From Myxococcota bacterium (GTDB taxonomy: Bacteria; Myxococcota_A; UBA9160; SZUA-336): DNA of 64,000 nucleotides. The notes beneath the pieces were generated by a model. It saw only the letters and a list, made by a program, of their open reading frames with translations. It was not told the origin of the DNA and did not search any database. The translations under genes and the position numbers were made by a program. Every line of letters begins with the position of its first letter. Position 1 is the stretch's first letter. The stretch spans positions 172,614 through 236,613 of the forward strand of contig DATJZP010000061.1 of NCBI GenBank assembly GCA_035498875.1, in the 5' to 3' direction. This document shows positions 1,224-48,185 of the stretch, piece by piece.

Positions 1224-2368
1224 AGCGCCCCGGCCATCCGCTCCAGGATCTGGGTCAGGATCGCGCGCGAGGTCGCGAAGTTCAGCCTCACGAAGCCGCG
1301 GCCCTGCACGCCGAATCGGCGCCCGTCGGAGAGCGCCACGCGCGCCCGATTCAGGAAGAAGTCGTAGGGCGCCTCGCCGCCGAGCTCGAGCGCCGCGCAG
1401 TCGAGCCAGGCCAGATAGAGTGACTCCGGCGTGAAGTGCACCACGCCCGGCAGGCGCTTCGCCACGAACTCGGCCAGGAAGCGGCGGTTCCCGTCCAGGT
1501 AGGCGAGCACGTCGTCGAGCCAGGGCTGGCACGAGCTCCAGGCGATCTCGGTCGCGGCCAGGCCGAAGCTGCCGAGGCCCCCCCGCACGTGACTGGGGAC
1601 GCTCTTGAAGCGCTCCAGGAGCGAGTCACTGCCGAACGCCGCCACCGCGCAGCGCAGCCCGGCGATGTTGAAGCCCTTGGTGGCCGAGGTGAGCGTGACG
1701 GTGCGCGCCTCGACCTCGGGTCCGAGCGACGCGAACGGGATGTGGCGGTGGCCGGGGTAGACCAGGTCGCACTGGATCTCGTCGGAGACCACGATCCAGT
1801 CGCGCTGCAGGGCGACCTGCGCCAGTCCTTCGAGCTCGCGCCGCGTGAACACGCGGCCGGTCGGATTCTGCGGGTGACACAAGAGCAGGATGCGGGCGCT
1901 CGAGTCGGCGCTGCGCAGCTGGTCGAGGTCCAGCTCGTAGCCGCGCGGCCCGCGCACCAGCGGGTTGGTCAGGAGCGCGCGCTGTGACTCGCGCACGGCG
2001 TCGAAGAACGGCGGATACACCGGCGGCTGGATCACCACGCCGTCGCCGGGCGACGACAGCGTCTGCAGCGCGACGTAGATGCCCTGCACCACGTCCGTCA
2101 GCACCAGCACGCGGCGGGGATCGACGGTCCAGCCGAAGCGCTCGAGCGCGCGCTTGGCGAACACCGTGGGCAGCCCCTCGGGGGTGGGATTCTGCGGGTA
2201 GCCGAGGTCGTGGATCGCCACGCGCTCCGCGAGCTGCTTGGCGATCGCCGGCGCGACCGGGAAGTCCATGTCCGCGACCCAGGCTGGGATCACGTCGGCG
2301 GGATAGTCCTGCCACTTCTCGCCGCGCCGGCGGCGCAGCTCGGTCAGGTCGAGCTCGTCGAAATTCAC
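1220..2368 (-). CDS. PLP-dependent aminotransferase class I/II, MalY/PatB-like (cystathionine beta-lyase type)
   Basis: Sequence FDELDLTELRRRRGEKWQ..DVIPAWVADMDFPVAP...TSATKGFNIAGLR, including a PLP-lysine context. The GTG start at 2368 abuts the addA stop. Confidence 0.8.
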   Translation of the reverse strand: MNFDELDLTELRRRRGEKWQDYPADVIPAWVADMDFPVAPAIAKQLAERVAIHDLGYPQNPTPEGLPTVFAKRALERFGWTVDPRRVLVLTDVVQGIYVALQTLSSPGDGVVIQPPVYPPFFDAVRESQRALLTNPLVRGPRGYELDLDQLRSADSSARILLLCHPQNPTGRVFTRRELEGLAQVALQRDWIVVSDEIQCDLVYPGHRHIPFASLGPEVEARTVTLTSATKGFNIAGLRCAVAAFGSDSLLERFKSVPSHVRGGLGSFGLAATEIAWSSCQPWLDDVLAYLDGNRRFLAEFVAKRLPGVVHFTPESLYLAWLDCAALELGGEAPYDFFLNRARVALSDGRRFGVQGRGFVRLNFATSRAILTQILERMAGAL

Positions 2369-5300
2369 GCGGGCGATTCTAACGGCAGGCGCTCGCGTTG
2401 GCCGGTGCGCAGCCACACTAGCTCGAGCCGCGGCGGCGGCTCACTCGGGAAGAGACGCGCCACGCCGCGCGCGTACACCGCGAGCTGCGCGCGGTAGCGC
2501 GCGCGCGAGTCGTGGTCCGGGGCGCGGTCGGTCTTGTAGTCGGCGACGACCAGCGCGCGGTCGACGGGATCGCGGTACAAGAGGTCGAGCGTGCCGCTCC
2601 AGACACGACCGTCCGGCTCGCGGAACAAGAGCGGCAGCTCGCGCCCCAGTATCTCGACGCCGCGCAGCGCGCGCGGCAGCTCGCTCGCCAACATGGCCTC
2701 GAGGGCGGGCTCGGCCTCCGCCAGGACCTCGGCTTCGGGCGCGCCGGCCAGACGGGCGGCGCGAGTCACCGCGGCGCGCAGCAGCGCGCGGGCGGTGTCG
2801 GGTCCCTTCAGGTTCCAGCGCTCCATCAGCTCGTGCAGCGCCGTGCCCACGGCGCGGGCGCGCGCGCGGGCGGCGGCGACGCGGGCAGGCAGTGACTCGT
2901 CGCGGTCGGCGCCGGGCGCGGCGTGCTCCTCGTCTTCGGGCGCGAGGCCGGACGGGCGCTGCAGCGCGGGGCGCACGGCGGCCGCGGCGCGTTCCGAAGC
3001 CGTGCGCGTGCGCTCGAGCCGCGCGAGAGAGTCACAGGCAGCGCGCGGCAGCGGCGCTGCAGCGCTCGCGGCCGGCTCGACGAAGCTGCGCTCGAGCAGC
3101 GCTTCATCGCGAAAGCTCGCGATCAACGCGCCGAAGGTGCGCTCCGCTGCCTTCTGCGTGCGGTTCGCCACCGCGAAGATCAGACGCTCCCGCGCGCGGG
3201 TCGCGGCCACGTACAAGAGCCTGCGAGTCTCTGCGTCGTCGTGGATCTCCTCGCGCGCCTGTCTCGAGACCCAGCTCGACGACAACGCCGCGCGCGTGCG
3301 GATCGCGAGCGCACCCCGCGCGCGGTCGAAGCGCACGTCGATCCCCAGCCAGTCGCCCGCGCCCGGAGGCGTCTTGCGCGCCAGGTCGGGCAGCACCACG
3401 ACGTCGAACTCCAGGCCCTTCGCGCCGTGGATCGACAGCACGCGCACGGCGTTGCTGTCGGGCACGGGCTCCTCCGAGGCTCGGCGCTGCTCTTCGCGCG
3501 CGAGCGAAGTCACTAGGCGCACGAGGTCACGGTCGGGCGCGCCGGCCGCCCGCGCAGTGAGTCGCTCGAGCAGCGCGGACAGGTCGGCGAGCCTGCGGAC
3601 TCCGTCGCGCGCGCCTGCATGGAGCGCCAGCAAGGGCGTCTCGTCCGCCAGCGCCGCCAACACCCGATCGAGCGGCTCGCTGCGGACGCGCGCGTGCCAC
3701 TCGCGCAGGAACGCGAAGGCGCGCGCCAGGTTGGGCACGCTCCCCGGGTCGGGCCGCGCGCTGGTGAAGAGCCAGCGCCCGCCATTGCGGGTGGCGTGCG
3801 CGGCCAGCTCCGCGTCGGGCACTCCGCCGAGCGGCGAGCGCAGGAAGCCGATCACGGCCGGGCCGTCGGCAGGGTTGGCCAGCGCGCGCAGCAGCGCAGT
3901 CACTTGCTGGGAAGCCGGCTCGCGGTCTGGCTCCTCGGCCCGCCCGACCCAGACCGCGATGCCGCGCTGCTGCAGCGCGCGCACGTAGACGTGCGCGTCG
4001 CTGAGTGCCCGCAAGAGCAGCGCCACCTGGCCCGGCTGGAAGCGCCCCGCCGTCGCTTCGCCCGCGATCCAGCCTGCGATCACCTCGGCCTCGAGCTCGC
4101 GCGAGTCCCCGGCGCTGGCGGCCTCGGCACCGATCGTCCAGCGTTCGACGCGCGGCTCTCGCGCCGGCTCACGGCGCGCTTCCAGGCCGTCGTAAGTCAC
4201 GTATGCGCCGGGTGCCTCGGCGTCGGCACCCGGCGGAGGCTCGAAGCTGTGCTGGAACAGCCGGTCGAGCGGCTGCACGAGCTCGGGCCGCGAGCGGAAA
4301 TTCGCGGTCAAAACGAGCCGGGCACCGCCGTCGCCGAGGATGCGCGTGACTGCGCTCTCGTAGGCGGAGATGTCGGCACCGCGGAAGCGGTAGATCGCCT
4401 GCTTGGGATCGCCCACGATGAACAGCCGGCCGGGCGGCAGCGCTGCGCCGCGTTCAGCGGCGACCAGGAACACGATCTCGTACTGCAGTGGGTCGGTGTC
4501 CTGGAACTCGTCGAGAAACAGCACCCGGTAGCGCTCCGCGACCTCCGCGCGCACGCGCGGGTGAGTCAGCAGGAGGTCGCGGGCGAGTGCCAGCAGCGCG
4601 TCGAAGGGCAGGAGCCCGGAGCGCTTGGCCTCGCGCTGCACCTGGCGCGCGAACGGTCGCACCAGCGCCAGCGCCTCGCCGAGCAGCGCGTCGTCGACTT
4701 GGCGCAGCTTGTCGAGGGTGGGGCGGAGCTCCTTCACCAGGGCCTCGGCTTCGGGCGCCTTCTTGCTGGTCGGCGCGCTGCCTTCGAACAGGCCGCGGAT
4801 CCCGCGGCTGCCGGCGTAAGTCGCAGCCACGAGCGCCGGCTGGAAGGCTTCTCCCGATTGCAGCAGCGCTTCGAGCGGCCGACGCGCCTCGTCGAGCCAG
4901 CTCTCGGGGCCGGGCGCGATCGGCGGCCGGAGCACGCGCTCGATCCGCGCCAGCGACGCGCGCGCCCAGTCCCCGAACACGGCGGCCAGCTCCGGCAGCG
5001 GAGCGTCGAGCGCATCCTCGCGCACCGTGAAGGCAGCGGCGGCGCGCGCTAGTGACTCGAGCTCGCCCAGGCCCAGGCGCTCGAGCACCCGCGCGAAGCG
5101 CTCGCGCTGCGCGCCGTCGACCCCGTCCGGGCCGGCCAGGAAGCGCTCCCACAGCTCGTCGACCAGCTCGTCGACGCGCTCGCCGGTGTCGATCGAGAGC
5201 TCGGGTCCGACGCCGGACTCGATCGGGTGGCGGCGGAGCAGGCGCGCGCAGAAGCCGTGGATGGTCGTGACCTCGATCTCCGCGAGCCCGTGCACGCCGC

Positions 5301-5643
5301 GCCGTGCGCGTTCGGCGATCTGCGGCAGGCCGACGCGCTCGCGCAGCCAGGCGAAGGCCCGGTCGGCCTCCTTTCCCAGGTCGAGCTGCTGCGCGGCGGT
5401 GTCGGCGCGGGCGTGCTCCGCCAGCCGCACCAGTGCCGCCTCGAGCCGCCGCCGCATCTCGGCGGCGGCCTTCTCGGTGAAGGTGATCGCCGCGAAAGCG
5501 TCGTGCGCCAGCTCGCACTCCACCATCTGACACACCAAGCGCTCGACCAGCAGGCTGGTCTTGCCGCTGCCGGCCCCGGCCACCACGACCAGGTTCTCGG
5601 CGTAGCCGTGGGCGGCGCGGTCGCGGGCGGCGGAATCAGTCAT
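2365..5643 (-). CDS. addA: ATP-dependent helicase/nuclease subunit A (AddA/UvrD-type with C-terminal PD-(D/E)XK nuclease)
   Basis: The ATG at 5643 gives MTDSAARDRAAHGYAENLVVVAGAGSGKT (helicase motif I). The C-terminal nuclease motif is TLDLLYRD..ALVVADYKTD. It overlaps the addB stop by 8 nt. Confidence 0.85.
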   Translation of the reverse strand: MTDSAARDRAAHGYAENLVVVAGAGSGKTSLLVERLVCQMVECELAHDAFAAITFTEKAAAEMRRRLEAALVRLAEHARADTAAQQLDLGKEADRAFAWLRERVGLPQIAERARRGVHGLAEIEVTTIHGFCARLLRRHPIESGVGPELSIDTGERVDELVDELWERFLAGPDGVDGAQRERFARVLERLGLGELESLARAAAAFTVREDALDAPLPELAAVFGDWARASLARIERVLRPPIAPGPESWLDEARRPLEALLQSGEAFQPALVAATYAGSRGIRGLFEGSAPTSKKAPEAEALVKELRPTLDKLRQVDDALLGEALALVRPFARQVQREAKRSGLLPFDALLALARDLLLTHPRVRAEVAERYRVLFLDEFQDTDPLQYEIVFLVAAERGAALPPGRLFIVGDPKQAIYRFRGADISAYESAVTRILGDGGARLVLTANFRSRPELVQPLDRLFQHSFEPPPGADAEAPGAYVTYDGLEARREPAREPRVERWTIGAEAASAGDSRELEAEVIAGWIAGEATAGRFQPGQVALLLRALSDAHVYVRALQQRGIAVWVGRAEEPDREPASQQVTALLRALANPADGPAVIGFLRSPLGGVPDAELAAHATRNGGRWLFTSARPDPGSVPNLARAFAFLREWHARVRSEPLDRVLAALADETPLLALHAGARDGVRRLADLSALLERLTARAAGAPDRDLVRLVTSLAREEQRRASEEPVPDSNAVRVLSIHGAKGLEFDVVVLPDLARKTPPGAGDWLGIDVRFDRARGALAIRTRAALSSSWVSRQAREEIHDDAETRRLLYVAATRARERLIFAVANRTQKAAERTFGALIASFRDEALLERSFVEPAASAAAPLPRAACDSLARLERTRTASERAAAAVRPALQRPSGLAPEDEEHAAPGADRDESLPARVAAARARARAVGTALHELMERWNLKGPDTARALLRAAVTRAARLAGAPEAEVLAEAEPALEAMLASELPRALRGVEILGRELPLLFREPDGRVWSGTLDLLYRDPVDRALVVADYKTDRAPDHDSRARYRAQLAVYARGVARLFPSEPPPRLELVWLRTGQRERLPLESPA

Positions 5644-8560
5644 CGAGGTCCGCCAGCGCATAGAAGCCCCGCCCCTGGTCGCTCGTCGTGACTCGCGCGC
5701 GGGAGGGCGGATGACGGATGCGGCACGCCACCGTGTAGTCGCAGAAGCGGCACTCACCGTCCTTGGCCGCGATCGGGTAGAAGCCGCGATCGAGCAGCCC
5801 ACCCAGCTCGGACAGCGCTGGCTCGGAGAGTGTCTCGAGCTCGGCGAGCTCGCGCTCGCGCTCGATCTCGCGCTTCCGATCGCGATCGCGCTCCGGGCGC
5901 AGCGGCACGGTCAGGACCTCGGCGGTCACGTTCCCGGCGCCCGCGCCCTGGGCGGCCATGCGCGCATACAGCGGCAGCTGCAGCGCCAGCCCGCGCTGGA
6001 TCCGGGTCTTGGACAGCGGCTTCTCGAAGGAGCGTCCCGTCTTGTAGTCGCCGATGCGGAGCCCGCCATCGGCCAGCGCGACCACGCGGTCGATCGTGCC
6101 CTTCACGGCCAGGACGCTGCCGCCCACCCGGAGGGTCGCGGTGGCATCCCGTTCCGGCGCCAGACGAGTCACTCCGCGGTGCATCAGCTCCGGCAGGTCG
6201 CGCTCCAGGAAGTCGGCGAGCGCGCGGGTCACCGTGGTCAGGAACGCGCCCCAGACCGTGGGGTGCCGCTCGCTCACCCGCTTGCGTTCGGAGTCGGCCG
6301 TGGCGCTCTCGAGCGCGGCCGGCAGCATGGCGCGTGCGCGGCGCAGGGCGACCGCCGGGTCCGCTCCGGCCTCCAGCAAGCCGGCCTCGAACAGCGTTCC
6401 GTACACGGTCTCCAGCGCATGGTGGATGAACGAGCCGATCTCGTTGGCCTCGAGCTCGTCGGCGCCCGGTGACTCGAGCGGGCGGACCACCAGCAGATGT
6501 CGAAAGAACGCGCGCAGCGGACACTGACCGAGCTCCTCCAGCGCGGTCACCCGGAGCTCCGCGGGCAGCGCGAGCGCCGCCCCGACCTCGGCGTCGTAGG
6601 GCAGGGACGGGTCGCTCATGCGATCGGTGTGTGTCACGAGCGCCCGGCCCGCGCGGAACGGCGCCGCGCCGGCGGGCGCCGCCGCGGCGATGGCTTCGGC
6701 CTGGCCCGCATCGCCGGCGCACACCGCCTGCACGAGCGCGTCGCCGGCGCGCGCGAAGTCAGGAGTGAGCGACTCCCAGGTAGTCACTTCGGCCGCCAGC
6801 ACGTCCGTGCCCGGAGCGGCGAAGGGCAGCACGTGCAGCAGCGCAGAGGGCGTCTGCGCGCGACCCAGTGAGTCGCTCTCGTAGTAGGAGAGCGTCACCC
6901 GTTCGCGCGCCTGCGCCAGCAGCAGCCCGAGCAGGAAGCGCTCCTCCCGCTCCGCCCGGGCACTCACCGGAACCGGGCGCCGGCTGCGCGAGCGCAGGGT
7001 CTCGCGCAGCCCGTCGGGAAGGAACGGGTCCTCTTGCACCACGCGCGGCCAGGCGCCGTGCACGAGCCCGACCAGGAACAAGTGCCCACAGGGCAGCGCG
7101 CGCGCCTGCACGGCGTCGAGCACCTGGACCGTCCCGCCGTCTTCGGCGGCGAAGGCTTGACTCACCAGCTCGTGCAGCGCCGACTCGAAGGCCCGGTCGA
7201 GGTCCGCTCGCGTCGGCTCGCGGCTCGCCCCCGCGGCGGAGCGCACGGCGTCGAGCGCGGACACGGCCGCGAGCGCGGGGCGCACGCGTTCCGCGTTCTC
7301 CGCGCCCAGGAGCTCGGCACCCACGCGCGCGAGACACTCGGCCGCCGCCGAATACGATCGGGCCGAAGCCAGCTCCGCGGCGCCCGCGACCAGGGCGTCG
7401 AGCAGGCGCGCGAGCGCCGCGCGCTCGATCCCGGGCGACAGTGTCTCGAGCGCCGCGCGCCAGTCCTTCTCGCCGCGCACGACGCCGCCCTGGCGCGCGG
7501 CCCGCTCGCCGAACGCGGCCAGCGCGGGGACGAGATCGGGAGCAGCGCGCAGACGCCCGGAGTCGAACAGCCGCACCAGCGCTGCGCGCGGCAGGTCGAG
7601 CACGAGCGCGCGCGCGAGCTCCAGCCAGACCCGCAGCGCCGGATCGGCGATCGCCGGCCGGGTGAGCGAGGAGCTCCACGGAATGCCATAGCCGCCCAGC
7701 GTGCTCTCGAGCCAGGGCGCGTAGGGATCGAGCGTGCGCGCGACGATCTGGATCTCGTCCGGCGGGACGCCTTCGTCGGCGATCAGCCGCAGCACCTCGC
7801 GCGCCACGGCCTCGAGCTCGGCCCGCGGCGAGCGGGCGCGGCGCACGCGCAGAGTCTCCGCAGTGACCTCGCCACCCGGTGTGAGCGCGGGCTGCGCGAC
7901 CGTCTCCACCGCTTCGACCGGGAAGCGCCAGCTCCACTCTTCGCGCAGCCGCGCCGCGTACTCACTCTGGAAGTCGGGCTGGAAGAAGCGAAAGGCCTCT
8001 CCCGGAAACGACTCGGCGACCTTCTCGACCAGGTCGCCCACCGAGCCCACGAGCTCGGTCGCGCCGTGCACCTCGACGCGCGTGAACTCGCGGCGCGCGA
8101 GATGCGCCCGCGCGCCGCGCAGGGCCAGGCGGAAGAGGCCCACGCGGTCGAACAGCCCCTGCTTCTCGAGCCGCGCCAGCGCGGCCTCGAAGGCCGAGTA
8201 AGTCGCGGCGAGCTCCGAGGCGCCACCCGGCAGGGCGCTCGGCGGCACGCCGGCATCGCGCAGGTCGCGCAGGGTCGCGGCCAGCGCACCCGCCAGCGCG
8301 GGCCGCTCCGCGAGTCTCTCGCCGAGCGCGCCGCGCCCGTGCGCGCAGGCCGCGGCCAGCTCGGCGGTCGCGCTCGCGCCGAGCAGCGCACGCACCGGCA
8401 CGTCGGTCTCGGCCGCGCAGCGCTCGGCCAGTCCGCGAAACGTGACGAACTCGCGGCCGAGCAGCGCACCGGAGCCGGACTGCGCGAGCGCATGCAGCCG
8501 TCGCGCGCGCAGCACGCGCGTCGACGCGGCGATCTCGAGGACGCGCTCTACGCCACTCAC
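5636..8560 (-). CDS. addB: Helicase-nuclease subunit B (AddB-like, PD-(D/E)XK nuclease with Fe-S cysteines)
   Basis: 974 aa. The C-terminal motif is GTIDRVVALADGGLRIGDYKTG. The cysteines QCPLRAF ... GECRFCDYTVAC match the AddB iron-sulfur staple pattern. It lies directly upstream of addA. Confidence 0.8.
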   Translation of the reverse strand: MSGVERVLEIAASTRVLRARRLHALAQSGSGALLGREFVTFRGLAERCAAETDVPVRALLGASATAELAAACAHGRGALGERLAERPALAGALAATLRDLRDAGVPPSALPGGASELAATYSAFEAALARLEKQGLFDRVGLFRLALRGARAHLARREFTRVEVHGATELVGSVGDLVEKVAESFPGEAFRFFQPDFQSEYAARLREEWSWRFPVEAVETVAQPALTPGGEVTAETLRVRRARSPRAELEAVAREVLRLIADEGVPPDEIQIVARTLDPYAPWLESTLGGYGIPWSSSLTRPAIADPALRVWLELARALVLDLPRAALVRLFDSGRLRAAPDLVPALAAFGERAARQGGVVRGEKDWRAALETLSPGIERAALARLLDALVAGAAELASARSYSAAAECLARVGAELLGAENAERVRPALAAVSALDAVRSAAGASREPTRADLDRAFESALHELVSQAFAAEDGGTVQVLDAVQARALPCGHLFLVGLVHGAWPRVVQEDPFLPDGLRETLRSRSRRPVPVSARAEREERFLLGLLLAQARERVTLSYYESDSLGRAQTPSALLHVLPFAAPGTDVLAAEVTTWESLTPDFARAGDALVQAVCAGDAGQAEAIAAAAPAGAAPFRAGRALVTHTDRMSDPSLPYDAEVGAALALPAELRVTALEELGQCPLRAFFRHLLVVRPLESPGADELEANEIGSFIHHALETVYGTLFEAGLLEAGADPAVALRRARAMLPAALESATADSERKRVSERHPTVWGAFLTTVTRALADFLERDLPELMHRGVTRLAPERDATATLRVGGSVLAVKGTIDRVVALADGGLRIGDYKTGRSFEKPLSKTRIQRGLALQLPLYARMAAQGAGAGNVTAEVLTVPLRPERDRDRKREIERERELAELETLSEPALSELGGLLDRGFYPIAAKDGECRFCDYTVACRIRHPPSRARVTTSDQGRGFYALADLDD

Positions 8561-11305: not shown

Positions 11306-11827
11306 ATGCATACTCCGAGCGTGACCCGCTCGCTGGCGGAAACCCTGATCCGACCCGTCGCTTATCCGTTGCTCGGACTCGCAGTGACGGGCTTCGTCAC
11401 CTGCCTCGTCTTTCATCTCCTCGCATTTCTAGGAGGGCCGCTTCCGTCCGCGGAGCTGGATCGCGTGCTGACGATTGGCGTGCTCGTCGTGTGGTTTCCT
11501 GCGCTGCTGATCGGAGCACAGATCACCAGCGGAACGAAGCGCCCCGAGATCTTGCAGGCGATGCTCCGAGGTTGCCCGAAGTGGATGGTTCACGGGGTCG
11601 TCGGGCTCAGCATCTACGTCCTGCTGTGCGGCATCTTGTCGTCGAATCACGAGGCGAATGCCTTCGCCATCAGGATGAGCTTCTACTTCTTCGGCAGCGC
11701 GATCTCGTACTCGGCGACACGAGTCGAGCACATCGGGCCGCGCCGCTGTCCGCAGGGCCACGAATCGTCCGACTCCGCGAGCTACTGCGACGTCTGCGGC
11801 CAAAAGCTTCCGCCCGCGCCGCTCTAG
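11306..11827 (+). CDS. Membrane protein with C-terminal zinc-ribbon
   Basis: About four hydrophobic segments, then CPQGHESSDSASYCDVCGQKL. Function unknown. Confidence 0.6.
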   Translation: MHTPSVTRSLAETLIRPVAYPLLGLAVTGFVTCLVFHLLAFLGGPLPSAELDRVLTIGVLVVWFPALLIGAQITSGTKRPEILQAMLRGCPKWMVHGVVGLSIYVLLCGILSSNHEANAFAIRMSFYFFGSAISYSATRVEHIGPRRCPQGHESSDSASYCDVCGQKLPPAPL

Positions 11828-14800
11828 CGGAAGTCGTGCGAGCGGGGCAGCAGGTCGCCCTGGAAGCGCGGGTCGATGCGCTCGAAGCGGCGCGCGCGCA
11901 CGTGGATGACTCCGTCCTGGTTCTGCACCGGACCTTCGACGATCAAGAGACCTGCGGTCTGCACCAGCGCGCGGTGTCTCTGGAACATGTCGGGCACGAC
12001 GATCGCGTTCGAGGTGCCGGTCTCGTCCTCGAGCGTGAGGAACAGGAAGCCCTTCGCCGTGCCGGGGCGCTGGCGCACGATCACCGCGCCGGCGATGCGC
12101 ACCCAGCTGCCGTCGGGCGCGCCGCGCAGCTCCGCGGCCGAGAGCACGCCGCGCGCGCGCAGTGAGTCGCGGAAATGACTCAAGAGGTGCGGGCCGGTGG
12201 TCAGGCCCGTGCCGCGGTAGTCGGCCACGGTGGTTTCGAAGGGGTTCATCTCCTCGAGCGGTGAGGGCGTGGCCGAACTGGCGCCCGAGAGCAGGCCGCC
12301 CTGAAGCGCGGCCACCTGCCAGAGCGCCTCGCGCCGGTCGAGGCCGAGGCTCGCGCAGGCGCCGATCGAGGCCAGCTTGTCGAGTTCGTCGCGGTGCAGC
12401 TCGCAGCGGTGCGCCAGGTCGCCCAGTGACTCGAAAGGGGACTCTGCCGCGACGCGCTGGCCCACCGCCTCGCGCAGGCCGTCGACGTAGCGCAGGCCCA
12501 GCCGGACCTCGCCGGCGTCGGTCACGAAGCACAGCCAGTCGCTCTCCTGCACGTCGATCGGCAAGGTGCGCACGCCGTGGCGCTGCGCGTCCTGCACCAG
12601 CGTGGCCGGGCTGTAGAAGCCGAGCGGCCATTGGTTCAGCATCGCGCAGAGGAAGCAGGCGGGGTGGTGCGCGCGGATGTAGGCCGAGGCGTAGGCCAGC
12701 AGCGCGAAGCTCGCGGCGTGACTCTCGGGGAAGCCGTAGAGCGCGAACGAGCCGATCTGCTTCACGATCTCTTCCTGCGCGTCGGGGGCGACACCGCGCT
12801 GTGTCATGCCCGCGCGCAGCTTGCGCTCGATCTCGCCCATGCGCTCGACCGAGCGCTTGAAGCCCATGGCGCGGCGCAGCTCCTCGGCCTCGCCGCCCGA
12901 GAAGCCGGCGATGGTCATGGCCATGCGCAGGAGCTGCTCCTGGAACAGCGGCACGCCCAGCGTGCGTTTCAGGATCGGCTCGAGGTCGGGGTGGGCGTAA
13001 GTCACAGCCTCGCGGCCCGCGCGCCGCTTCAGGTAGGGCTGCACCATCTCGCCGGTGATCGGCCCGGGCCGGATGATCGCGACCTCGACCACCAGGTCGT
13101 AGAACGAGGTCGGCTTCATGCGCGGCAGGGTGGCCATTTGCGCGCGGCTCTCGACCTGGAATACGCCCGCGGTGTCTCCCGCCTGCAGCATCGCGTAGGT
13201 CTTCGGGTCGCCGGCGGGGATCCTGTCGAGCGCGACGTCGGCGCCGTCGTGCGCCTCGACCAGCGGAATCACTTCCTCGAGCACGGCCATCATGCCCAGC
13301 CCGAGCAGGTCGATCTTGATGATGCCCAGGTCCGCGCAGTCGTCCTTGTCCCACTGGATCACGCGCCGGCCCGGCATGCGCGCCGGCTCGAGCGGAACGA
13401 CCGCGTCGAGCCGGCCCTTCGCGATCACCATCCCGCCCGAGTGCTGGCCCAGGTGTCTCGGCAGGTTCTGCGTCTCGTGCACGAGCCGCACCAGGTGGCG
13501 CACGCGCGGCGCGTCGGGATGTACGCCCGACTCGCGCAGCTGGCGCTCGAGCGCGTCGTTCTCGTCGGTGAACTCGTGGCGCGAGAGCAGCTTCGCCAGC
13601 CGGTCGATCTGCTCGTTCGCCAGCCCCAAGACCTTGCCCATCTCGCGCACGGCGCTCTTCGAGCGGTAGGTGATCACGTTCGCGGTCATGCCCGCGCCGT
13701 TCACACCGTAGCGCTCGTACACGTACTGCAGGATCTCCTCGCGTCGGTCGCCCGACGGCAGGTCGATGTCGATGTCGGGCCACTCACCGCGTTCCTCGGA
13801 CAGGAAGCGCTCGAACAAGAGCTCGTAGCGCACCGGGTCGATGGCGGTGATGCCGAGCGCGTAACACACGATCGAGTTGGCGGCCGAGCCGCGCCCCTGA
13901 CACAAGACGCCGCGTGCGCGGCACTCGCGCACGACGTCCCACACGATCAGGAAGTAGCCCTCGAGCGCGAGCCGGCCGATGATGCCGAGCTCGTGCTCGA
14001 GCTGCGTCTTCGCCTGCTCGGGAACTTTGCCGCCGTAGCGCTCGCGCGCGCCCTCGAAGGCCAGCCGGCGCAGCAGGGCGGGCAGTGACTCGTTGCCGCT
14101 CGGGAACTCGGGGAACTCGTAGCCCAGGTCCTCGAGCTGGAAGGCGCAGCGCTCGGCCAGCGCGAGCGTGTTCGCGAGCGCCGCGGGCAGATCGGCGAAG
14201 CGCCGTGCAGTCTCTGCGGCGGAATGGATGTGGCGCTCCGCGTTGGGCAGGAGCAGCCGCCCCGCATCGTCGAGCCGCACGCCGTGGGCCACGCAGCTGA
14301 AGGCGTCGAGCAGACGCTTGCCCTCGGGGTAGGCATGGCGCACGTCGCCGGTCGCGAGCGGTGAGACACCGGTGGCCAGGAGCTTGCGGTTCGCGCGCTC
14401 CTCGTCCGGATCGCAGTGGCGCCAGATCTCTCCGAAAGTGTCTCGCGCTCCGAAGGTGTCGCGAACGGGAGTCACCAATCCGGGCTCGCGCACGATCGCG
14501 CTCAGCCCGTCCGAGTGCTCGCGCAGCTCGTCCCAGGTGACCCGGCTGTGCGGCTTCTCGACCCGCGCATGACCCAGGGTGAGCAGCTTGCACAGGTTCT
14601 GGTAGCCCGTGCGATCGCGGACCAAGAGAGTGACTCGCCCACCGTCGGGCGGTGGATCGCTCTTCCGGCGCCGCTTCGCCCCGGCCACCAGGTGTACGCG
14701 CGCGCCGCAGATCGCCCGCGCGCCGAGCGCACGCGCGGCGCGGTGGAAGCGCGGCAGTCCGTAGACGCCGTGCGCGTCCGCGAGCGCGAGCACGCCGTGC

Positions 14801-14904
14801 CCGAGCTCCGCCGCGCGTGCGATCAGGTCCTCGGGCGCAGAGCTCGCTTCGAGAAAGCTGAAGGCACTACGTGTACTTAGCTCGATGAAAGGGGGTGAGG
14901 TCAT
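11824..14904 (-). CDS. dnaE2: Error-prone DNA polymerase III alpha paralog DnaE2 (ImuC)
   Basis: 1026 aa. The PHP N-terminus reads FIELSTRSAFSFLEASSAPEDLIARAAELGHGVLALADAHGVYG. A Pol III alpha core is present. The size and the lack of a tau/beta-binding tail are typical of DnaE2. Confidence 0.9.
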   Translation of the reverse strand: MTSPPFIELSTRSAFSFLEASSAPEDLIARAAELGHGVLALADAHGVYGLPRFHRAARALGARAICGARVHLVAGAKRRRKSDPPPDGGRVTLLVRDRTGYQNLCKLLTLGHARVEKPHSRVTWDELREHSDGLSAIVREPGLVTPVRDTFGARDTFGEIWRHCDPDEERANRKLLATGVSPLATGDVRHAYPEGKRLLDAFSCVAHGVRLDDAGRLLLPNAERHIHSAAETARRFADLPAALANTLALAERCAFQLEDLGYEFPEFPSGNESLPALLRRLAFEGARERYGGKVPEQAKTQLEHELGIIGRLALEGYFLIVWDVVRECRARGVLCQGRGSAANSIVCYALGITAIDPVRYELLFERFLSEERGEWPDIDIDLPSGDRREEILQYVYERYGVNGAGMTANVITYRSKSAVREMGKVLGLANEQIDRLAKLLSRHEFTDENDALERQLRESGVHPDAPRVRHLVRLVHETQNLPRHLGQHSGGMVIAKGRLDAVVPLEPARMPGRRVIQWDKDDCADLGIIKIDLLGLGMMAVLEEVIPLVEAHDGADVALDRIPAGDPKTYAMLQAGDTAGVFQVESRAQMATLPRMKPTSFYDLVVEVAIIRPGPITGEMVQPYLKRRAGREAVTYAHPDLEPILKRTLGVPLFQEQLLRMAMTIAGFSGGEAEELRRAMGFKRSVERMGEIERKLRAGMTQRGVAPDAQEEIVKQIGSFALYGFPESHAASFALLAYASAYIRAHHPACFLCAMLNQWPLGFYSPATLVQDAQRHGVRTLPIDVQESDWLCFVTDAGEVRLGLRYVDGLREAVGQRVAAESPFESLGDLAHRCELHRDELDKLASIGACASLGLDRREALWQVAALQGGLLSGASSATPSPLEEMNPFETTVADYRGTGLTTGPHLLSHFRDSLRARGVLSAAELRGAPDGSWVRIAGAVIVRQRPGTAKGFLFLTLEDETGTSNAIVVPDMFQRHRALVQTAGLLIVEGPVQNQDGVIHVRARRFERIDPRFQGDLLPRSHDFR

Positions 14905-14924
14905 GGCGCAGCAGGATCTCCCGC

Positions 14925-14954
14925 GATTTTCGCCGAATTTTCGCTCTGGTCAAG
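14925..14954 (-). promoter_or_regulatory. Candidate operator/promoter of dnaE2: direct repeat GCGAAAAT-N3-GCGAAAATCG next to a TTGACC hexamer
   Basis: The plus strand reads GATTTTCGCCGAATTTTCGCTCTGGTCAAG. The ATTTTCGC units lie at 14926-14933 and 14937-14944, an 11-bp period. Nearly the same element occurs upstream of imuB at 34171-34202. Confidence 0.55.
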
Positions 14955-14982
14955 AAAATCCTCACTTACCGATAGGTCTGCC

Positions 14983-15621
14983 GTGAAGGATGTTGCCGCA
15001 AAGATTCTCAACTCGAGTTACGAGGTCGTAGCTGTTCTTGTGCCAGGCCTCCTGAGTCTCGCAGCACTGGCCTTTCCGCTTCTGTTGCTCGTTCAACTCA
15101 GTGGCCTCAGTGTCTTACCGTCGTCATTTCCATCTGATCCCAACGCCGCTCTATGCATTTCGATCATGACGTTGGCCTATCTCTATGGTCGTCTCCTACA
15201 GGCGAGCGTCCGTGCCTACCCTGAATGTGTCAAAGAGTTCCTTTCGAAACGCTCGATGCGAGTCAGGCTCTTCCTCCTCGATCTGCCAAGCGGGCCTTCG
15301 ATCGGAGGTGATTGGGAGCCACAGTGGAAGTCACTCTGTGGATGGCTGAGCCTGCCGAGAGACGCGACTTGGAAGCAGTTCTACCTAACCGCTCGAGCTC
15401 GATTGCAGCAGAGTGAAAAGACGAGTCTGCTGCCAACGTTTCAAGGCAAGTACACCTTGAACAGGTCACTCGCCCGTGGCCTCGGGATAGCTATCTGGGT
15501 GGAGGCATTCGCAGGAGTCGGGGAAACCATCATCGCAGAGGCCACCGCTCTTTGCAGTGCTTCGTTCGAGAATGAGAGGCCCCCTCGGATCGACGTCGCG
15601 CCGCGAAACCCGGCGACGTAG
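14983..15621 (+). CDS. Hypothetical membrane protein encoded in a low-GC (~52%) patch
   Basis: 212 aa with an N-terminal hydrophobic segment VVAVLVPGLLSLAALAFPLLLLVQL. Composition is clearly atypical for the window. I recognise no family. Confidence 0.5.
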   Translation: MKDVAAKILNSSYEVVAVLVPGLLSLAALAFPLLLLVQLSGLSVLPSSFPSDPNAALCISIMTLAYLYGRLLQASVRAYPECVKEFLSKRSMRVRLFLLDLPSGPSIGGDWEPQWKSLCGWLSLPRDATWKQFYLTARARLQQSEKTSLLPTFQGKYTLNRSLARGLGIAIWVEAFAGVGETIIAEATALCSASFENERPPRIDVAPRNPAT

Positions 15622-15632
15622 CTTCTCCGGAA

Positions 15633-16397
15633 TCAGATTGAGATCCCGAGGCGCTGCGCGAGCGCGCTGCACCACTCGTCGGCCGTCTCCGACACGTAGC
15701 CGCGATCCAGCGTTCCCAGCAGTCCGTGCTTCTTCGGCGCGCTGAAGAGCCAGCTGCGGTCCGTGCGGAGTGACTCGAGCGGGATGCCGGCGAAGCGCGC
15801 AATCTCGTCGCTGCGTTTGCCGATCTCGCTGGTCTCGATCACCAGCAGGCGCGCGGGCGGAACCGCCTCGAGCACGCGCCGGTTGTGGGCGGCCCAGAGC
15901 TGGAAGTAACAGGCCAGCGGCGGGAAGCCGTGCTCCGTGAGTGGCGCGTCGAAGCGGGTCGGCTGGAACTCGGCGACTCGCAGGCGCAGCCGGTCGAGCT
16001 CGGCCCATGGCGACGCCGGATCCACGGGCCGGCTCAGATTGTGATCGAGCCAGGAGTCGCACCACGAGCGCGGCTCGCGCACGGTCAGCACGAACTGCTT
16101 GTCGGGGCAGGCTCGGACCAGCGGATGGATCAGGAGCCCCGCGAGGCTGGAGGACTCCATCTCGAGCCAGAAGTCGCGGTCGCGTTCCCGCAGGATGCGG
16201 CGCGCCCGAGACTCGCTGACGCCGCCCCGCAACAGTCCGATCGCGAGCGGCAGGCGTGTCTCGGCGTCGGGGTGGTGGGCGCTGCGAAAGCCCTCGAACA
16301 GGCCCGCCATCGAATGAGTCCCTGTCTTGGACAGGCCGCAGCAGCACAGGTTGGCGCGGCGGGGGCGAAGGATGGGCTTCAGCGCCCGAGCCGCCAT
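15633..16397 (-). CDS. Sulfotransferase family protein
   Basis: The ATG at 16397 gives MAARALKPILRPRRANLCCCGLSKTGTHSMAGLF, a 5-prime PSB-like KTGT motif. The N-terminal 160 aa of ORF 15633..16889 overlap the plus-strand GGCT gene and were rejected. Confidence 0.6.
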   Translation of the reverse strand: MAARALKPILRPRRANLCCCGLSKTGTHSMAGLFEGFRSAHHPDAETRLPLAIGLLRGGVSESRARRILRERDRDFWLEMESSSLAGLLIHPLVRACPDKQFVLTVREPRSWCDSWLDHNLSRPVDPASPWAELDRLRLRVAEFQPTRFDAPLTEHGFPPLACYFQLWAAHNRRVLEAVPPARLLVIETSEIGKRSDEIARFAGIPLESLRTDRSWLFSAPKKHGLLGTLDRGYVSETADEWCSALAQRLGISI

Positions 16398-22972: not shown

Positions 22973-23104
22973 GATTCGCCTCCTCGCCAAGGGCACGCGA
23001 AACAGGAACAGCAACCCGAGTGCCAAGCCGTACGGGCACGGAAGCTCGTGACTGCGTGTCCGAGCCATGGTGATTTCTGCAAAAGGCCAGCGAAACCTCG
23101 GGGG

Positions 23105-26649: not shown

Positions 26650-27504
26650 TTAGCTCGACGCCGCCTTCTTACCCTTCGCCTTGGCGCCTTTGCGCGCGGT
26701 CTCGGCCGCGGCCGGCTTCTCCTTGCCCGCGGCCTTCTCGGACAGACTCTTCTTCAGCGCCGCCACCAGGTCGATGATCTGCTCGCGCGCCTCTTCGGGC
26801 GGCGCGGCCACGATCTCTTCGCCCGCCACCTTGCGGTCGACGGCAGAGAGGATCTGGCGCCGGTACTCGTCCTCGTACTTCTGGGCTTCGAACTTGTCGT
26901 GAGAGAGCTGCTCGACCAGCTCCTTCGCGAGCTTCAGCTCGGCGTCCTTCAGCGCGATCGTCTTGTCGATCTCGATGTCCGAGAAATCACGCACCTCGTC
27001 CGCGTAGTAGAGGCCGTGCATCGCCAGGCCGTCGCCCATCGGGCGCAGCAGCACGAGCTGCAGGCGCCCGCGCGTCGAGTAACGCCCCACGGCCACGCGC
27101 TTGGTCTCGGTCATCGCGCGGTGCAGCAGCTGATACGCCTTGTGACCGCCCTTGTCGGGACCGAGCAGGTTCGACTTCTCGAAATACACCGGATCGACCT
27201 GTGAGATCGGCACGAACTCCTCGATCTCGATCGTCTGGTCGGTCTTGCGCTGCAAGCCGGCGAGCTCTTCGTCGGTCACCACCACATACTGGTCGCGGGC
27301 GTACTCGTAGCCCTTCACGGTGGCGTTGCGCTCCACGACTTCGCCGCAGGTCGCGCAGATGTATTGCTGCTTGAGGCGCGACTTGTCCTTCTCGTGCAGC
27401 ATGCTGAAGCGCACGTCCTTGCTGCTGGTCGCGGTGAAGACCTTGATGGGGATCGACACCAGACCGAACGAGATCGTCCCGGACGAGATCGCGCGCGCAG
27501 GCAT
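26650..27504 (-). CDS. ku: Non-homologous end joining protein Ku
   Basis: Sequence MPARAISSGTISFGLVSIPIKVFTATSS...VKGYEY..DQYVVVTDEEL, with a basic C-terminal tail. Confidence 0.9.
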   Translation of the reverse strand: MPARAISSGTISFGLVSIPIKVFTATSSKDVRFSMLHEKDKSRLKQQYICATCGEVVERNATVKGYEYARDQYVVVTDEELAGLQRKTDQTIEIEEFVPISQVDPVYFEKSNLLGPDKGGHKAYQLLHRAMTETKRVAVGRYSTRGRLQLVLLRPMGDGLAMHGLYYADEVRDFSDIEIDKTIALKDAELKLAKELVEQLSHDKFEAQKYEDEYRRQILSAVDRKVAGEEIVAAPPEEAREQIIDLVAALKKSLSEKAAGKEKPAAAETARKGAKAKGKKAASS

Positions 27505-27577
27505 TCCGCTCCTTTGGCCCCGGGGGTGGGCCGCAGCGGGAGGGAACCTAACCGTACGATACTTTCGCCCCGGAGCG

Positions 27578-28033
27578 CTACTTCTTCAGCTCGAGCTTCA
27601 CGCCCGACGCGCCTGCCGTGAGCGACAGACCGCGCGTGGTGGCGTTGATGTGCACCTCGACGCCGGCCGGGTTGCCCATGATCAGGCCACCGCCGCCACC
27701 GCCGATCGTGCCGCCGCCGACCAGGGCGGTGTAGTTGCCGGAGAAGTCCTCGAGCTTCGACAGGTGATACACCTTGCCCACCGCCTGGATCTCGCTCGCG
27801 CCCACCGAGCCGACGGTGATGCCGTCGACCGTGACCGGGTACGACTTACCCTTGTAGGTGAGCGTGCCGCCGCCCCAGGAGTAGCCGACGCCCGCGGCCA
27901 CGGCCTTCGCAGAGAGCTTCAAGGTGGCGTCGGGCTTGGGCTTCGTGGCCTTCTCGGCGGCGTGGCCGACACCGGACAGTGTAACCACGCAAGCCAGGGC
28001 CAGGATGACTCGGACCGACGTTCGAGCGTGCAT
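27578..28033 (-). CDS. Secreted Gly-rich hypothetical protein
   Basis: The ATG at 28033 gives a signal peptide, MHARTSVRVILALACVVTLSGVGHA. GYSWGGGTLTYKGKSYPV and a GGGTIGGGGGG stretch follow. Confidence 0.6.
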   Translation of the reverse strand: MHARTSVRVILALACVVTLSGVGHAAEKATKPKPDATLKLSAKAVAAGVGYSWGGGTLTYKGKSYPVTVDGITVGSVGASEIQAVGKVYHLSKLEDFSGNYTALVGGGTIGGGGGGLIMGNPAGVEVHINATTRGLSLTAGASGVKLELKK

Positions 28034-28111
28034 CTCGTGCTCCTTCGTTGAATCAATCACTTTAGCGGACGCTCCGAAGTGCAGCCATCGTGCCAGTCGC
28101 ATGCTCCCGCT

Positions 28112-28128
28112 CGCGAGAAATTCTCGCG
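28112..28128. promoter_or_regulatory. Perfect 17-bp palindrome CGCGAGAA-A-TTCTCGCG in the ligD divergent promoter region
   Basis: The arms at 28112-28119 and 28121-28128 are exact reverse complements. The site lies 84 nt upstream of the ligD ATG and 79 nt upstream of the minus-strand secreted-protein gene. Confidence 0.45.
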
Positions 28129-28211
28129 GTCTCCTCGTGTAAGTTCCACACTCGGAGGCGCGTCCAGCCGACTCGCGGGCAAGAGCGCTCCCATCTTAGT
28201 ATCCGAGGCTC

Positions 28212-30737
28212 ATGGCCGATCTGAAGACCTACCGCGAGAAGCGGGACCCGAACGCGACGCCGGAGCCGTTCGGACTCGACGGCGAGGTGCGCGCGCTGCC
28301 GCCCAACGCCGCGCGCGCGTTCGTGATTCAGCAGCACGCCGCGCGCTCCATGCACTGGGACTTTCGCGTCGAGATCGACGGCGTGCTGGTGAGCTTCGCG
28401 ATCCCGAAGGGACCCACGTTGGACCCGAAGGAGAAACGCTTCGCCGCGCAGACCGAGGACCATCCGCTCGAGTACGCGGACTTCGAGGGAGTGATTCCCA
28501 AGGGCAACTACGGCGCGGGAGCGATGATCGTCTGGGACCGCGGCAGCTATCACACGGTCGAGGGACGCTCGCCGGCCGAGGGTCTGGCCGAAGGCAAGCT
28601 CGACCTGCAGCTCGCGGGTCACAAGCTGCGCGGCCGCTTCACGCTGGTGCGCATGAAGGGCGAGGGCGGCAAGAGCTGGCTCTGGCTGTCGAAGCGCAAG
28701 GGCAAGCTGGCCGAGGGCGAGATCGTCGAGAACGAGGCCGAGTCGGTGCTGTCGGGGCTCACCATCGACGAGCTGCGCGACGGCGTGAGTCGCACCGCCG
28801 AAGTCGAGTCACTCACCGACGCAGCCGCCGCGCCGCGGCGCGCGCTGCCGGACGCGGCGCTCGAACCGATGCTGGCCGAGGTCGCCGACGACGCCTTCAC
28901 CCGCGACGGCTGGCTGTTCGAGCTGAAGTACGACGGCGCGCGCGTGGTCGCGCAAAAGCGCGCCGACGGCAGCGCGCGGCTGGTGGCGCGCAGCGGGCGC
29001 GACGTGACCGAGGCCTATCCGGAGATCACGCGCGCGGTCCGACACCTTCCGGTGTCGGAGTGCGCGATCGACGGCGAAGTGGTCGCGCTCGACGACTCGG
29101 GCCGCGCCTCGTTCGAGCGGCTGCAGCCCCGTTTCCGCAACCTGCCCACGCCGCGCAGCGAGGTCGACGTGCCGCTGGTCTTCTACGCCTTCGACGCGCT
29201 GTCGGCGGCGGGCCGGGACCTGCGCGGGCTGCCGCTGGTGTCGCGCAAGGAGATCCTCTCCCGCTTCGCGCCGCGGCTCGGCTTCGTGCGCTTCTCGGAC
29301 CACGTGCTCGGCGCCGGCCAGGCGCTGCTCGAGGCGGCGCGCGCCAACCAGCTCGAGGGCATCGTCGCCAAGCGCTGTGACTCGCGCTACGAGAGCGGCC
29401 GGCGCTCGAAGAGCTGGCTGAAGATCAAGCTGCCGCGCAGCTCGCTCCTGGCGATCGTCGGCTACAACCTTGGCAAGGGCTCGCGCGAGTCACTGGGCTC
29501 GGTGCTGCTGGCCTGGCGCCGCGATGGCGCCTGGACCTACGCGGGCAGCGCCGGCTCGGGCCTGGCCGAGGACTCGAGCGCGAAGCTGCAGCAGGCGCTC
29601 GATCCGCTGCGCGTGGCGAAACCCGAGTTCGCCGGCGAGCCGCCGAGCAAGGGCGTCGTCTTCGTGCGGCCCGAGCTCGTGTGCGAGGTGCGCTACACCG
29701 AAGTCACGAGCGCCGGAGGCCTGCTGCGCCAGCCGGTGTTCGTGCGCTTGCGGCCCGATGCCAAGCTCGAAGACTGCGTCGCCCCGGCGGAGCTGAACGC
29801 CGCCGCGCCGGAGGCCGTTCCTGCGCCCGCAGCCAGGAAGCCAGCGGACGACGGCCAGCCGCGACTCACTCGGCTCGAAAAGGTGTTCTGGCCGGTCGAG
29901 GGCTACACCAAAGGCGACCTGCTGGCGTACTACGAGGCGGTCTGGCCCTGGCTCGGTCCGTACCTGCGCGACCGGCCGCTGGTGCTCACGCGCTACCCCG
30001 ACGGCATCGAGGGCAAGTCCTTCTACCAGAAGAACGCGCCCGACTTCACGCCCGACTGGGTGCTGCGCCAGCAGATCGAGGGCACCGACTACTTCATCTG
30101 CAACGAGCTCCGGACGCTCCTGCACGTGATCAACTCGGGCGCGATTCCGCTCCACGTCTGGAGCTCGCGCGCCCAGGCGCTCGACCGCCCCGACTGGCTG
30201 ATCCTCGACCTCGACCCGAAGCAGGCGCCGTTCGCGCACGTGGTCCAGGTCGCGCGGCACATCCACGACCTGCTCGAGGAGCTTGGCGCGAGTCACTTCG
30301 TGAAGACCTCGGGCCAGGACGGGCTGCACGTGCTGCTGCCGCTGGGTCAGTCACTCGACCACGACGACGCGCGGCGCCTGGCCGAGGTGCTGGCGCGCGC
30401 GGTGGTGGCCGACCTGCCCAAGATCTCGACCATCACCCGGCCGGTCGCCGCGCGCGGGGAGCGCGTGTACGTCGACTATCTGCAGAACGGCCGCGGCAAG
30501 CTGATCGCATCGATCTTCTCGGTGCGGCCGCGCCCGCACGCGCCGGTCTCGATGCCGCTCGAGTGGAAGCAGGTGAGCGCGCGGCTCGACCCCACGAAGT
30601 TCACGATCAAGACCGCGCCCGCGCGGCTGGAGAAGAGCGGAGACCCATTCGCGGGCGTGCTCGGTCCCGGAGTCGACGCGGTCGGGCTCTTGGGCGCGCT
30701 GGTCGAGAGACTCTCGAAGAAATCCGCAAAGGAGTGA
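28212..30737 (+). CDS. ligD: ATP-dependent DNA ligase D (phosphoesterase-ligase-polymerase/primase)
   Basis: The PE domain reads FVIQQHAARSMHWDFRVEIDG. Ligase motif I is ELKYDGAR. The C-terminal Pol domain reads KVFWPVEGYTKGDLLAYYEAVWPWLGPYLRDRPLVLTRYPDGI. Confidence 0.9.
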   Translation: MADLKTYREKRDPNATPEPFGLDGEVRALPPNAARAFVIQQHAARSMHWDFRVEIDGVLVSFAIPKGPTLDPKEKRFAAQTEDHPLEYADFEGVIPKGNYGAGAMIVWDRGSYHTVEGRSPAEGLAEGKLDLQLAGHKLRGRFTLVRMKGEGGKSWLWLSKRKGKLAEGEIVENEAESVLSGLTIDELRDGVSRTAEVESLTDAAAAPRRALPDAALEPMLAEVADDAFTRDGWLFELKYDGARVVAQKRADGSARLVARSGRDVTEAYPEITRAVRHLPVSECAIDGEVVALDDSGRASFERLQPRFRNLPTPRSEVDVPLVFYAFDALSAAGRDLRGLPLVSRKEILSRFAPRLGFVRFSDHVLGAGQALLEAARANQLEGIVAKRCDSRYESGRRSKSWLKIKLPRSSLLAIVGYNLGKGSRESLGSVLLAWRRDGAWTYAGSAGSGLAEDSSAKLQQALDPLRVAKPEFAGEPPSKGVVFVRPELVCEVRYTEVTSAGGLLRQPVFVRLRPDAKLEDCVAPAELNAAAPEAVPAPAARKPADDGQPRLTRLEKVFWPVEGYTKGDLLAYYEAVWPWLGPYLRDRPLVLTRYPDGIEGKSFYQKNAPDFTPDWVLRQQIEGTDYFICNELRTLLHVINSGAIPLHVWSSRAQALDRPDWLILDLDPKQAPFAHVVQVARHIHDLLEELGASHFVKTSGQDGLHVLLPLGQSLDHDDARRLAEVLARAVVADLPKISTITRPVAARGERVYVDYLQNGRGKLIASIFSVRPRPHAPVSMPLEWKQVSARLDPTKFTIKTAPARLEKSGDPFAGVLGPGVDAVGLLGALVERLSKKSAKE

Positions 30738-34071: not shown

Positions 34072-34170
34072 GGCTCCGAACCGGTCCCCGGCTCGAGCGA
34101 GAGAGCCTCGCCGCCGGGGTAGTTTCCGTTGTCCGCCATCTCAGCCCCTCTTTCGCTGTTTGTTCGAATC

Positions 34171-34202
34171 GATTTTCGCTCGATTTTCGCCCTGGCGTCA
34201 AG
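34171..34202 (-). promoter_or_regulatory. Candidate operator/promoter of imuB: second copy of the GCGAAAAT-N3-GCGAAAATCG element next to TTGACG
   Basis: The plus strand reads GATTTTCGCTCGATTTTCGCCCTGGCGTCAAG. The units lie at 34172-34179 and 34183-34190, an 11-bp period. The same architecture occurs at 14925-14954. Confidence 0.55.
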
Positions 34203-47180: not shown

Positions 47181-47190
47181 CGCCCTGCTC

Positions 47191-48138: not shown

Positions 48139-48185
48139 ACGAAGGGATGTTACGAGCCGAAGGGGCGGATCGGTTTTTGTTTTCT

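Follow-up and report, generated by a model that had tools for sequence, protein, structure and literature searches.

A paired direct repeat in the dnaE2 and imuB promoters of a Myxococcota genome is a probable LexA-type SOS operator

Introduction

Do mutasome genes that lie apart in a Myxococcota genome answer to a common operator, and if so, which repressor would read it? Among bacterial regulators, LexA is unusual in that its binding motif has changed many times, and a new LexA motif opens the SOS regulon of its lineage to prediction. By 2021, 17 LexA motifs had been reported (PMC8565304). Here we address this question for a 64,000-nucleotide stretch from an uncultured soil bacterium of the Myxococcota (the window; 70.7% G+C), in which an earlier note had described a paired repeat upstream of dnaE2 and imuB and proposed that it is either the SOS (LexA) box of this lineage or the site of another damage-responsive repressor. 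Conservation of the element at orthologous promoters and its association with SOS genes and lexA in relatives support this proposal, and from sequence comparison we consider the pair to be probably a LexA-type SOS operator that forms part of the core promoters of both genes.

Results

Two copies of a direct repeat in the dnaE2 and imuB promoters

The pair GCGAAAAT-N3-GCGAAAAT occurs at two sites in the window, 14926-14944 and 34172-34190, both on the minus strand, where none is expected. At both sites the GCGAAAAT units are direct repeats with an 11-bp period, TTGAC precedes the first unit (by 4 nt at dnaE2 and 6 nt at imuB), and the four exact GCGAAAAT octamers of the window (0.58 expected) all fall within these two pairs. 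Re-reading the minus strand at these positions reproduced the upstream sequences quoted for both genes in the earlier note, including two units 11 bp apart next to TTGACC or TTGACG. Its further claim that the paired unit has no other copy in the window was borne out, as no third site was found across the window with up to 2 mismatches tolerated, and 100 shuffles yielded 0 matches. A looser search of the window (up to 4 mismatches, spacer of 2-4) returned, besides overlapping registers of both sites, just three 4-mismatch matches. For the looser core GCGAAA-N5-GCGAAA (up to 2 mismatches), 8 matches were obtained against 6.4 expected, and a 1-mismatch site at 23079-23095 upstream of a DUF4398 gene was thus treated as chance. 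No copy was found at the other DNA-repair genes of the window, which encode an AddA/AddB-like helicase-nuclease pair (2365-8560), Ku and LigD of non-homologous end joining (26650-30737), an AlkB-like 2OG-Fe(II) oxygenase (35623-36234), and an AlkD-like DNA alkylation repair protein fused to DUF952 (59763-60788), and no lexA or recA gene was found in the window.

The dnaE2 gene (11824-14904, minus strand) encodes a 1026-aa error-prone Pol III alpha paralogue with Pfam PHP, DNA_pol3_alpha, finger, HHH_6, and OB domains, and its upstream region reads cTTGACCagaGCGAAAATtcgGCGAAAATcgcgggagatcctgctgcgccATG on the gene strand. The candidate operator (14926-14944, minus strand; GCGAAAATTCGGCGAAAAT) lies 21 nt from the dnaE2 ATG. 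A sigma-70 consensus scan identified a -35-like hexamer TTGACC at 14948-14953 and a -10-like hexamer GAAAAT at 14926-14931 on the same strand, the latter made up of the final six bases of the second unit. This TTGACC-16 nt-GAAAAT promoter matches 9 of 12 consensus positions, compared to 0.1 such sites expected in shuffles, and is the only promoter-like site in the region. Directly upstream of dnaE2 is a low-GC island (14950-15650; 52-59% vs. 70.7% for the window), which may be a recent insertion and which includes an orphan 212-aa ORF (14983-15621, plus strand), hydrophobic by eye and without a Pfam match, for which no counterpart was found beside dnaE2 in relatives. The ORFs divergent from dnaE2 and imuB were considered as an explanation of the element and rejected because they are not conserved in relatives.

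The imuB gene (32488-34071, minus strand) encodes a 527-aa catalytically dead Y-family mutasome subunit with a Pfam IMS domain, whose homologues are named ImuB, the best named ones (~80% identical) being from Myxococcota MAGs. Its upstream region reads cTTGACGccaggGCGAAAATcgaGCGAAAATcgattcgaac on the gene strand, and its candidate operator (34172-34190, minus strand; GCGAAAATCGAGCGAAAAT) lies 100 nt from the imuB start. The same scan placed a -35-like hexamer TTGACG at 34196-34201 and a -10 hexamer GAAAAT at 34172-34177, within the second repeat unit, and this TTGACG-18 nt-GAAAAT promoter (0.0 expected in shuffles) is again the only promoter-like site in its region. The repeat possibly continues at imuB as two degenerate units, TCGAACAA and GCGAAAGA (34151-34167, minus strand), after a one-base slip in register; we regard this continuation as uncertain, as these units carry 2 mismatches to GCGAAA-N5-GCGAAA, a score at chance level by itself and notable only by their position beside the operator. 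The imuB leader also includes an upstream ORF of 77 codons (33906-34139, minus strand) with a strong Shine-Dalgarno sequence, gaggggctgagATG, which overlaps the imuB start (34071) in another frame. The same arrangement, i.e., a GGGGG-type Shine-Dalgarno sequence, an ATG, a variable N-terminus, and the same frame offset and stop position, was observed in 10 of the 14 imuB relatives with a located start and was not found in the other four (L166, L180, L181, and L182). This ORF might act as a brake on ImuB translation or couple translation to it, or might be no more than an alternative frame that stays open in GC-rich DNA.

Two other interpretations of the element itself were rejected. A palindromic reading applies to the dnaE2 site only (CGAAAATTCG), and the spacer is not conserved across sites. 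A structured RNA leader (riboswitch or attenuator) is likewise disfavored, since no Rfam family matched anywhere in the window, the start codon lies within 5-6 nt of the element in many relatives, and the element overlaps the -10 box and so acts on DNA.

Conservation of the pair at mutasome promoters

The earlier note had made its proposal depend on conservation upstream of dnaE2 and imuB orthologues. To assess conservation without ASCERTAINMENT bias, we used five ImuB homologues from Myxococcota MAGs (79, 67, 56, 54, and 51% identity) selected by protein similarity alone, and all five retain the element: TTGA(C/T), 5-6 nt, and then the pair with 0-3 mismatches of 16 (e.g., cgcTTGACgcggagGCGAAACTCAGGCGAAAAT and ctcTTGATcaaaaGCGAAAATAAGACGAAACT), in an unchanged promoter position immediately before imuB, imuB-dnaE2, or imuA-imuB-dnaE2. 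No second pair with 3 or fewer mismatches was found in these five 7.5-kb loci, and the sequence flanking the pair has diverged across them. The pair is thus a clear phylogenetic footprint at imuB promoters. The same element is found in the nearest dnaE2 relatives (78-82% identity; L140, L150, L142, and L163), of which L140 and L150 came from the motif search itself, while the dnaE2 site of L142 and L163 (1 mismatch) was not the match through which these loci were ascertained. In L142 and L163, dnaE2 directly follows imuB, yet has its own copy of the operator.

Distribution across genomes and metagenomes

We scanned 185,579 GTDB species genomes for the exact pair and obtained at least 120 loci. 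Most of the 120 loci listed are chance matches in AT-rich genomes, so that the scan can be used for gene-context enrichment but not as a regulon list. Among these 120, 11 matches were directly upstream of SOS-type genes: dnaE2 (L024 and L007), imuB-dnaE2 with a divergent SRAP peptidase gene (L073, Geothrix campi), imuA (L026, L086, and L104), a Y-family polymerase (L081, Terracidiphilus), uvrA (L085), canonical lexA (L067, a Riflebacteria MAG), and HTH_3 plus Peptidase_S24 repressors (L041 and L069, two Nitrospinae). Clustering of the ORFs around exact-pair loci revealed few recurrent families besides SOS genes; these clusters included a Flavobacteria group (L043, L046, and L102) and a Pseudoalteromonas pair.

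We also scanned metagenomes for TTGAC-N3-7 preceding the pair, a query biased toward this promoter architecture, and obtained 52 loci representing 45 distinct sites. These comprised 13 imuA, 13 imuB, 5 dnaE2 (one of the five assignments resting on an N-terminal peptide only), and 1 recA, the latter (L161) being a true recA whose product shares 71% identity with E. coli RecA across 182 residues. The remaining loci include a SocA/Panacea antitoxin, a DUF6946 protein, six near-identical contigs, and several unknowns. These six soil contigs (L132, L137, L151, L154, L157, and L169) carry TTGACAGCG-GCGAAAATGCGGCGAAAAT upstream of a 115-aa protein with a predicted signal peptide and no Pfam match; the site either marks a regulon member that was not expected or has arisen by chance.

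Overall, the element was identified at more than 35 imuA, imuB, or dnaE2 loci, and upstream of the core SOS genes recA (L161), uvrA (L085), and a Y-family polymerase (L081). The suggestion that recA and other SOS genes should share the element was thus substantiated in relatives, where the exact pair precedes recA, uvrA, a Y-family polymerase, and the SRAP gene. Across the ~390 kb of loci retrieved, further sites differing at 1-2 positions lay at lexA, imuA, imuB, or dnaE2, with three exceptions: one is a tandem repeat in L136, another falls within the AT-rich L147, and the third precedes an unannotated gene of the lexA locus L186. The L136 repeat (4850-4891) consists of three tandem CGCGAAAATTC units upstream of a 465-aa protein with collagen-like GEKGD repeats, and is probably unrelated to the SOS element. 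The 11-bp period was invariant in all sites examined, and the element lay between -35 and -10 or included the -10. A start codon 5-6 nt after the second unit was found in 11 of 13 imuA loci and in one dnaE2 locus (L123, L126, L129, L130, L133, L135, L143, L148, L153, L164, L170, and L024).

Some loci showed more elaborate arrangements. In L104 (4222-4266), in the uvrA promoter of L085, and in L081 (~2705-2748), a third, inverted unit (ATTT(T)CGC) lies 10-18 nt from the direct pair, with a TATAAT-like or TTGACA box in between, and such composite three-unit operators may bind two repressor dimers or serve divergent promoters. In the Nitrospinae MAGs L041 and L069, the exact pair is found 20 nt upstream of a gene for a phage CI-like repressor of 295 aa with HTH_3 and Peptidase_S24 domains. 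A long coiled-coil ATPase, SbcC/RecN-like by eye, flanks the opposite side, and this arrangement is kept in both genomes. This repressor may be a non-canonical SOS regulator with the same operator.

The element in lexA promoters

L067 encodes a canonical LexA that combines LexA_DNA_bind and Peptidase_S24 domains and is 37% identical to its E. coli counterpart. The promoter site of this gene was found by the motif scan; homologues of the L067 protein were then fetched by protein similarity alone. Among the lexA loci selected in this way, the element is clearly present in three lineages and more weakly in a fourth, consistent, for these lineages, with the earlier expectation that an SOS box should also precede lexA. 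In a Vicinamibacteria clade with 201-aa LexAs (L174-L178; lineage taken from a named member), the lexA upstream regions read TTGACTTTCGCCTAAGTTTCGCCTAAgcT and TTGACTTTCGCCTGATTTTCGCCTAcgcT, with the repeats TTGACTTTCGCCTAAGTTTCGCCTAA and TTGACTTTCGCCTGATTTTCGCCTA; the Ozemobacteraceae lexA (L184) is preceded by gTTCGCTTGACATTCGCCTTTCATTCGCCTATGGT (repeat TTGACATTCGCCTTTCATTCGCCTATGGT), the L185 lexA (LexA 59% identical) by TTGACTTTCGCTGTTTGTTCGCCTATATT, and the lexA of L186, the fourth lineage, by a weaker three-unit array. In these promoters the units correspond to the other-strand reading, (A/T/G)TTCGC(C) with the core TTCGC, the 11-bp period is kept, and the reverse-oriented repeat fills the 17-nt spacer between -35 and -10. 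The element is thus forward with respect to the regulated gene at mutasome genes and reverse at lexA, and its use in either orientation fits a repressor site rather than a promoter element.

The six associated LexAs are canonical (LexA_DNA_bind plus Peptidase_S24) and share the segment GLSSxATVHKHL in their DNA-binding domain, and the closest solved structures to these proteins are LexA repressors. Taken together, the sites at lexA and those at recA, uvrA, and translesion genes point towards an autoregulated SOS regulon, with the link to LexA being drawn from Acidobacteriota and Riflebacteria loci. In the Vicinamibacteria loci L174-L178, the gene order lexA, DUF3467, dinB (IMS), and HhH-GPD glycosylase is kept downstream of the operator, and DUF3467 may represent an uncharacterized SOS gene.

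Comparison with known LexA boxes

The closest parallel is the direct repeat GTTC-N7-GTTC of alphaproteobacterial LexA (PMC8565304; PMC12700426), a motif also reported for Acidobacterium capsulatum (ref. 53 in PMC7739468). The likeness to this box pointed out in the earlier note holds for the geometry, i.e., a direct repeat with an 11-bp period and a TTC core (the element reads ATTTTCGC-N3-ATTTTCGC on the other strand), but not for the GTTC tetranucleotide itself, as GTTC-N7-GTTC has 0 matches in the window. Both motifs are found in promoters of lexA, recA, uvrA, and imuA-imuB-dnaE2. However, the defining G of the alphaproteobacterial box is a T in this element (TTTC units) and an A in Ozemobacteraceae, the second unit of the L185 lexA promoter (GTTCGC) being the sole GTTC unit. 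In addition, conservation in this element continues to GC(C) on the 3' side and into an A/T run on the 5' side, both of which are lacking in the Caulobacter example GTTCttgttatGTTC (PMC12700426).

Other described boxes are more distant. In Myxococcus xanthus, which belongs to the same phylum as the window organism, imuB and dnaE2 likewise have separate promoters, each with its own SOS box, but this 'deltaproteobacterial' box, CTRHAMRYBYGTTCAGS, is unrelated to our element in sequence and structure (bioRxiv 10.1101/2020.12.14.422803). The 17-nt M. xanthus consensus has no match at the imuB and dnaE2 promoters, and the window contains two matches with 2 mismatches elsewhere, as many as expected by chance. 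The half-site CGAA(C) of the Gram-positive (Cheo) box CGAAC-N4-GTTCG resembles the unit core GCGAA(A), but the Cheo half-sites are inverted and 4 bp apart, whereas the units of this element are direct, follow an 11-bp period, and form no dyad conserved across sites. The experimentally confirmed Balneolaeota motif TTACACATATTTTWTACATA is likewise a LexA direct repeat (PMC7739468), with a sequence unrelated to this element. Literature searched for the octamer, and for a direct-repeat LexA motif in Acidobacteria, Myxococcota, or Patescibacteria, contained no description of this motif, and this sequence variant of a direct repeat therefore appears to be undescribed, although an earlier description is possible.

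Discussion

What, then, does the pair do at dnaE2 and imuB? That its two window copies reflect chance similarity or a functionless dispersed repeat is hardly credible: the presence of only two copies in the window and the random appearance of many exact matches in AT-rich genomes would fit such an origin, but 0 of 100 shuffles produced a match, all five orthologous promoters keep the element while their flanks diverge, and the association with SOS genes is strong. The repeat could instead be a promoter element only, providing a -10 and a spacer signal for a housekeeping or alternative sigma factor without any repressor, as would be suggested by its fixed position after TTGAC, the coincidence of the second unit with the -10, and the proximity of start codons (5-6 nt after the unit in the imuA and dnaE2 loci listed above), which is consistent with leaderless transcripts. 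We nevertheless regard this as very unlikely. Although sigma-70 reads little sequence in the spacer, the first unit, which is located there, is conserved to the same degree as the second. In lexA promoters, which have separate -10 boxes, the pair is reversed, and in L073, L085, and L104 it is found upstream of the promoter or beyond it. The associated genes also represent a DNA-damage regulon and not a general gene set.

A repressor other than LexA, i.e., a LexA-like paralogue or an unrelated damage-responsive factor, could also be dedicated to the ImuA-ImuB-DnaE2 mutasome in this Myxococcota lineage, with the lexA sites elsewhere belonging to a related but separate system. There is precedent in Pseudomonas putida, in which LexA paralogues are dedicated to the imuA-imuB-dnaE2 cassette. 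Such a repressor would also be in line with the make-up of the TTGAC-type matches, where mutasome genes account for 31 of 52 (~60%) and recA for just one, as well as with the phyla of the loci that provide the LexA link, none of which is Myxococcota. The M. xanthus LexA box, the only characterized one in Myxococcota, moreover differs in sequence (bioRxiv 10.1101/2020.12.14.422803). Against this, the loci read show no regulator gene accompanying the mutasome genes that bear the motif, the identical pair is found elsewhere before recA, uvrA, lexA, and a Y-family polymerase, and canonical lexA genes have the element in their own promoters, which together make a dedicated repressor unlikely in our view. 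Counting against the LexA reading, several DNA-repair genes of the window (Ku, LigD, AddAB-like, AlkB-like, and AlkD-like) have no copy of the element. Judging from the sequence associations, LexA is probably the protein that binds the pair, its binding would repress, and the LexA of this Myxococcota lineage would have the same specificity.

As a LexA-type SOS operator, the pair would work as follows. A LexA dimer would place one DNA-binding domain on each unit (consensus about aRGCGAAAATw); the units are one helical turn apart and direct rather than inverted. The operator fills the spacer after TTGAC, and because its second unit doubles as the -10 GAAAAT, bound repressor would exclude RNA polymerase. 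Upon DNA damage, LexA would cleave itself under stimulation by RecA and leave the promoter free, and scattered mutasome genes would be switched on together, each via its own operator copy. If transcription starts ~7 nt after the -10, the short distance between second unit and start codon predicts leaderless imuA or dnaE2 mRNAs in many lineages, while the window dnaE2 would have a leader of ~14 nt and imuB one of ~90 nt containing the upstream ORF.

A broader evolutionary reading can be put forward only tentatively, and we lean slightly against it. RGCGAAAAT-N2-RGCGAAAAT (core TTCGC-N6-TTCGC) would be an undescribed LexA motif common to uncultured Myxococcota, Acidobacteriota (Vicinamibacteria, Geothrix, and Terracidiphilus), Riflebacteria, and possibly Nitrospinota, which would double as the -10 of leaderless mutasome promoters. 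Its origin would be independent of the alphaproteobacterial repeat: starting from a LexA whose recognition helix is Gram-positive-like, one CGAA half-site would have been flipped, and lexA transfer would have carried the motif between phyla. The GLSSxATVHKHL segment of the associated LexAs is presumably more like Gram-positive than alphaproteobacterial LexA, and such a Gram-positive-like helix segment would favor an independent origin.

LexA repression of imuB and dnaE2 is a textbook principle, and given this principle the gain from a new operator is incremental rather than conceptual. If true, the LexA reading would yield a pattern with which to search for the damage response in soil groups that are abundant yet mostly uncultured (Myxococcota MAGs, Vicinamibacteria, and Riflebacteria), along with another case of LexA reading a direct repeat, a mode of binding whose structural basis is, to our knowledge, still unsolved. 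It would also illustrate how mutasome genes tens of kilobases apart can be co-regulated via identical promoter-operator modules. Geothrix campi is a cultured carrier of the element, which makes the prediction directly testable.

Elsewhere in the window, an MtrB/PioB-type outer-membrane porin adjoins a multihaem cytochrome (44712-48258, minus strand), forming an extracellular electron-transfer module in a Myxococcota MAG.
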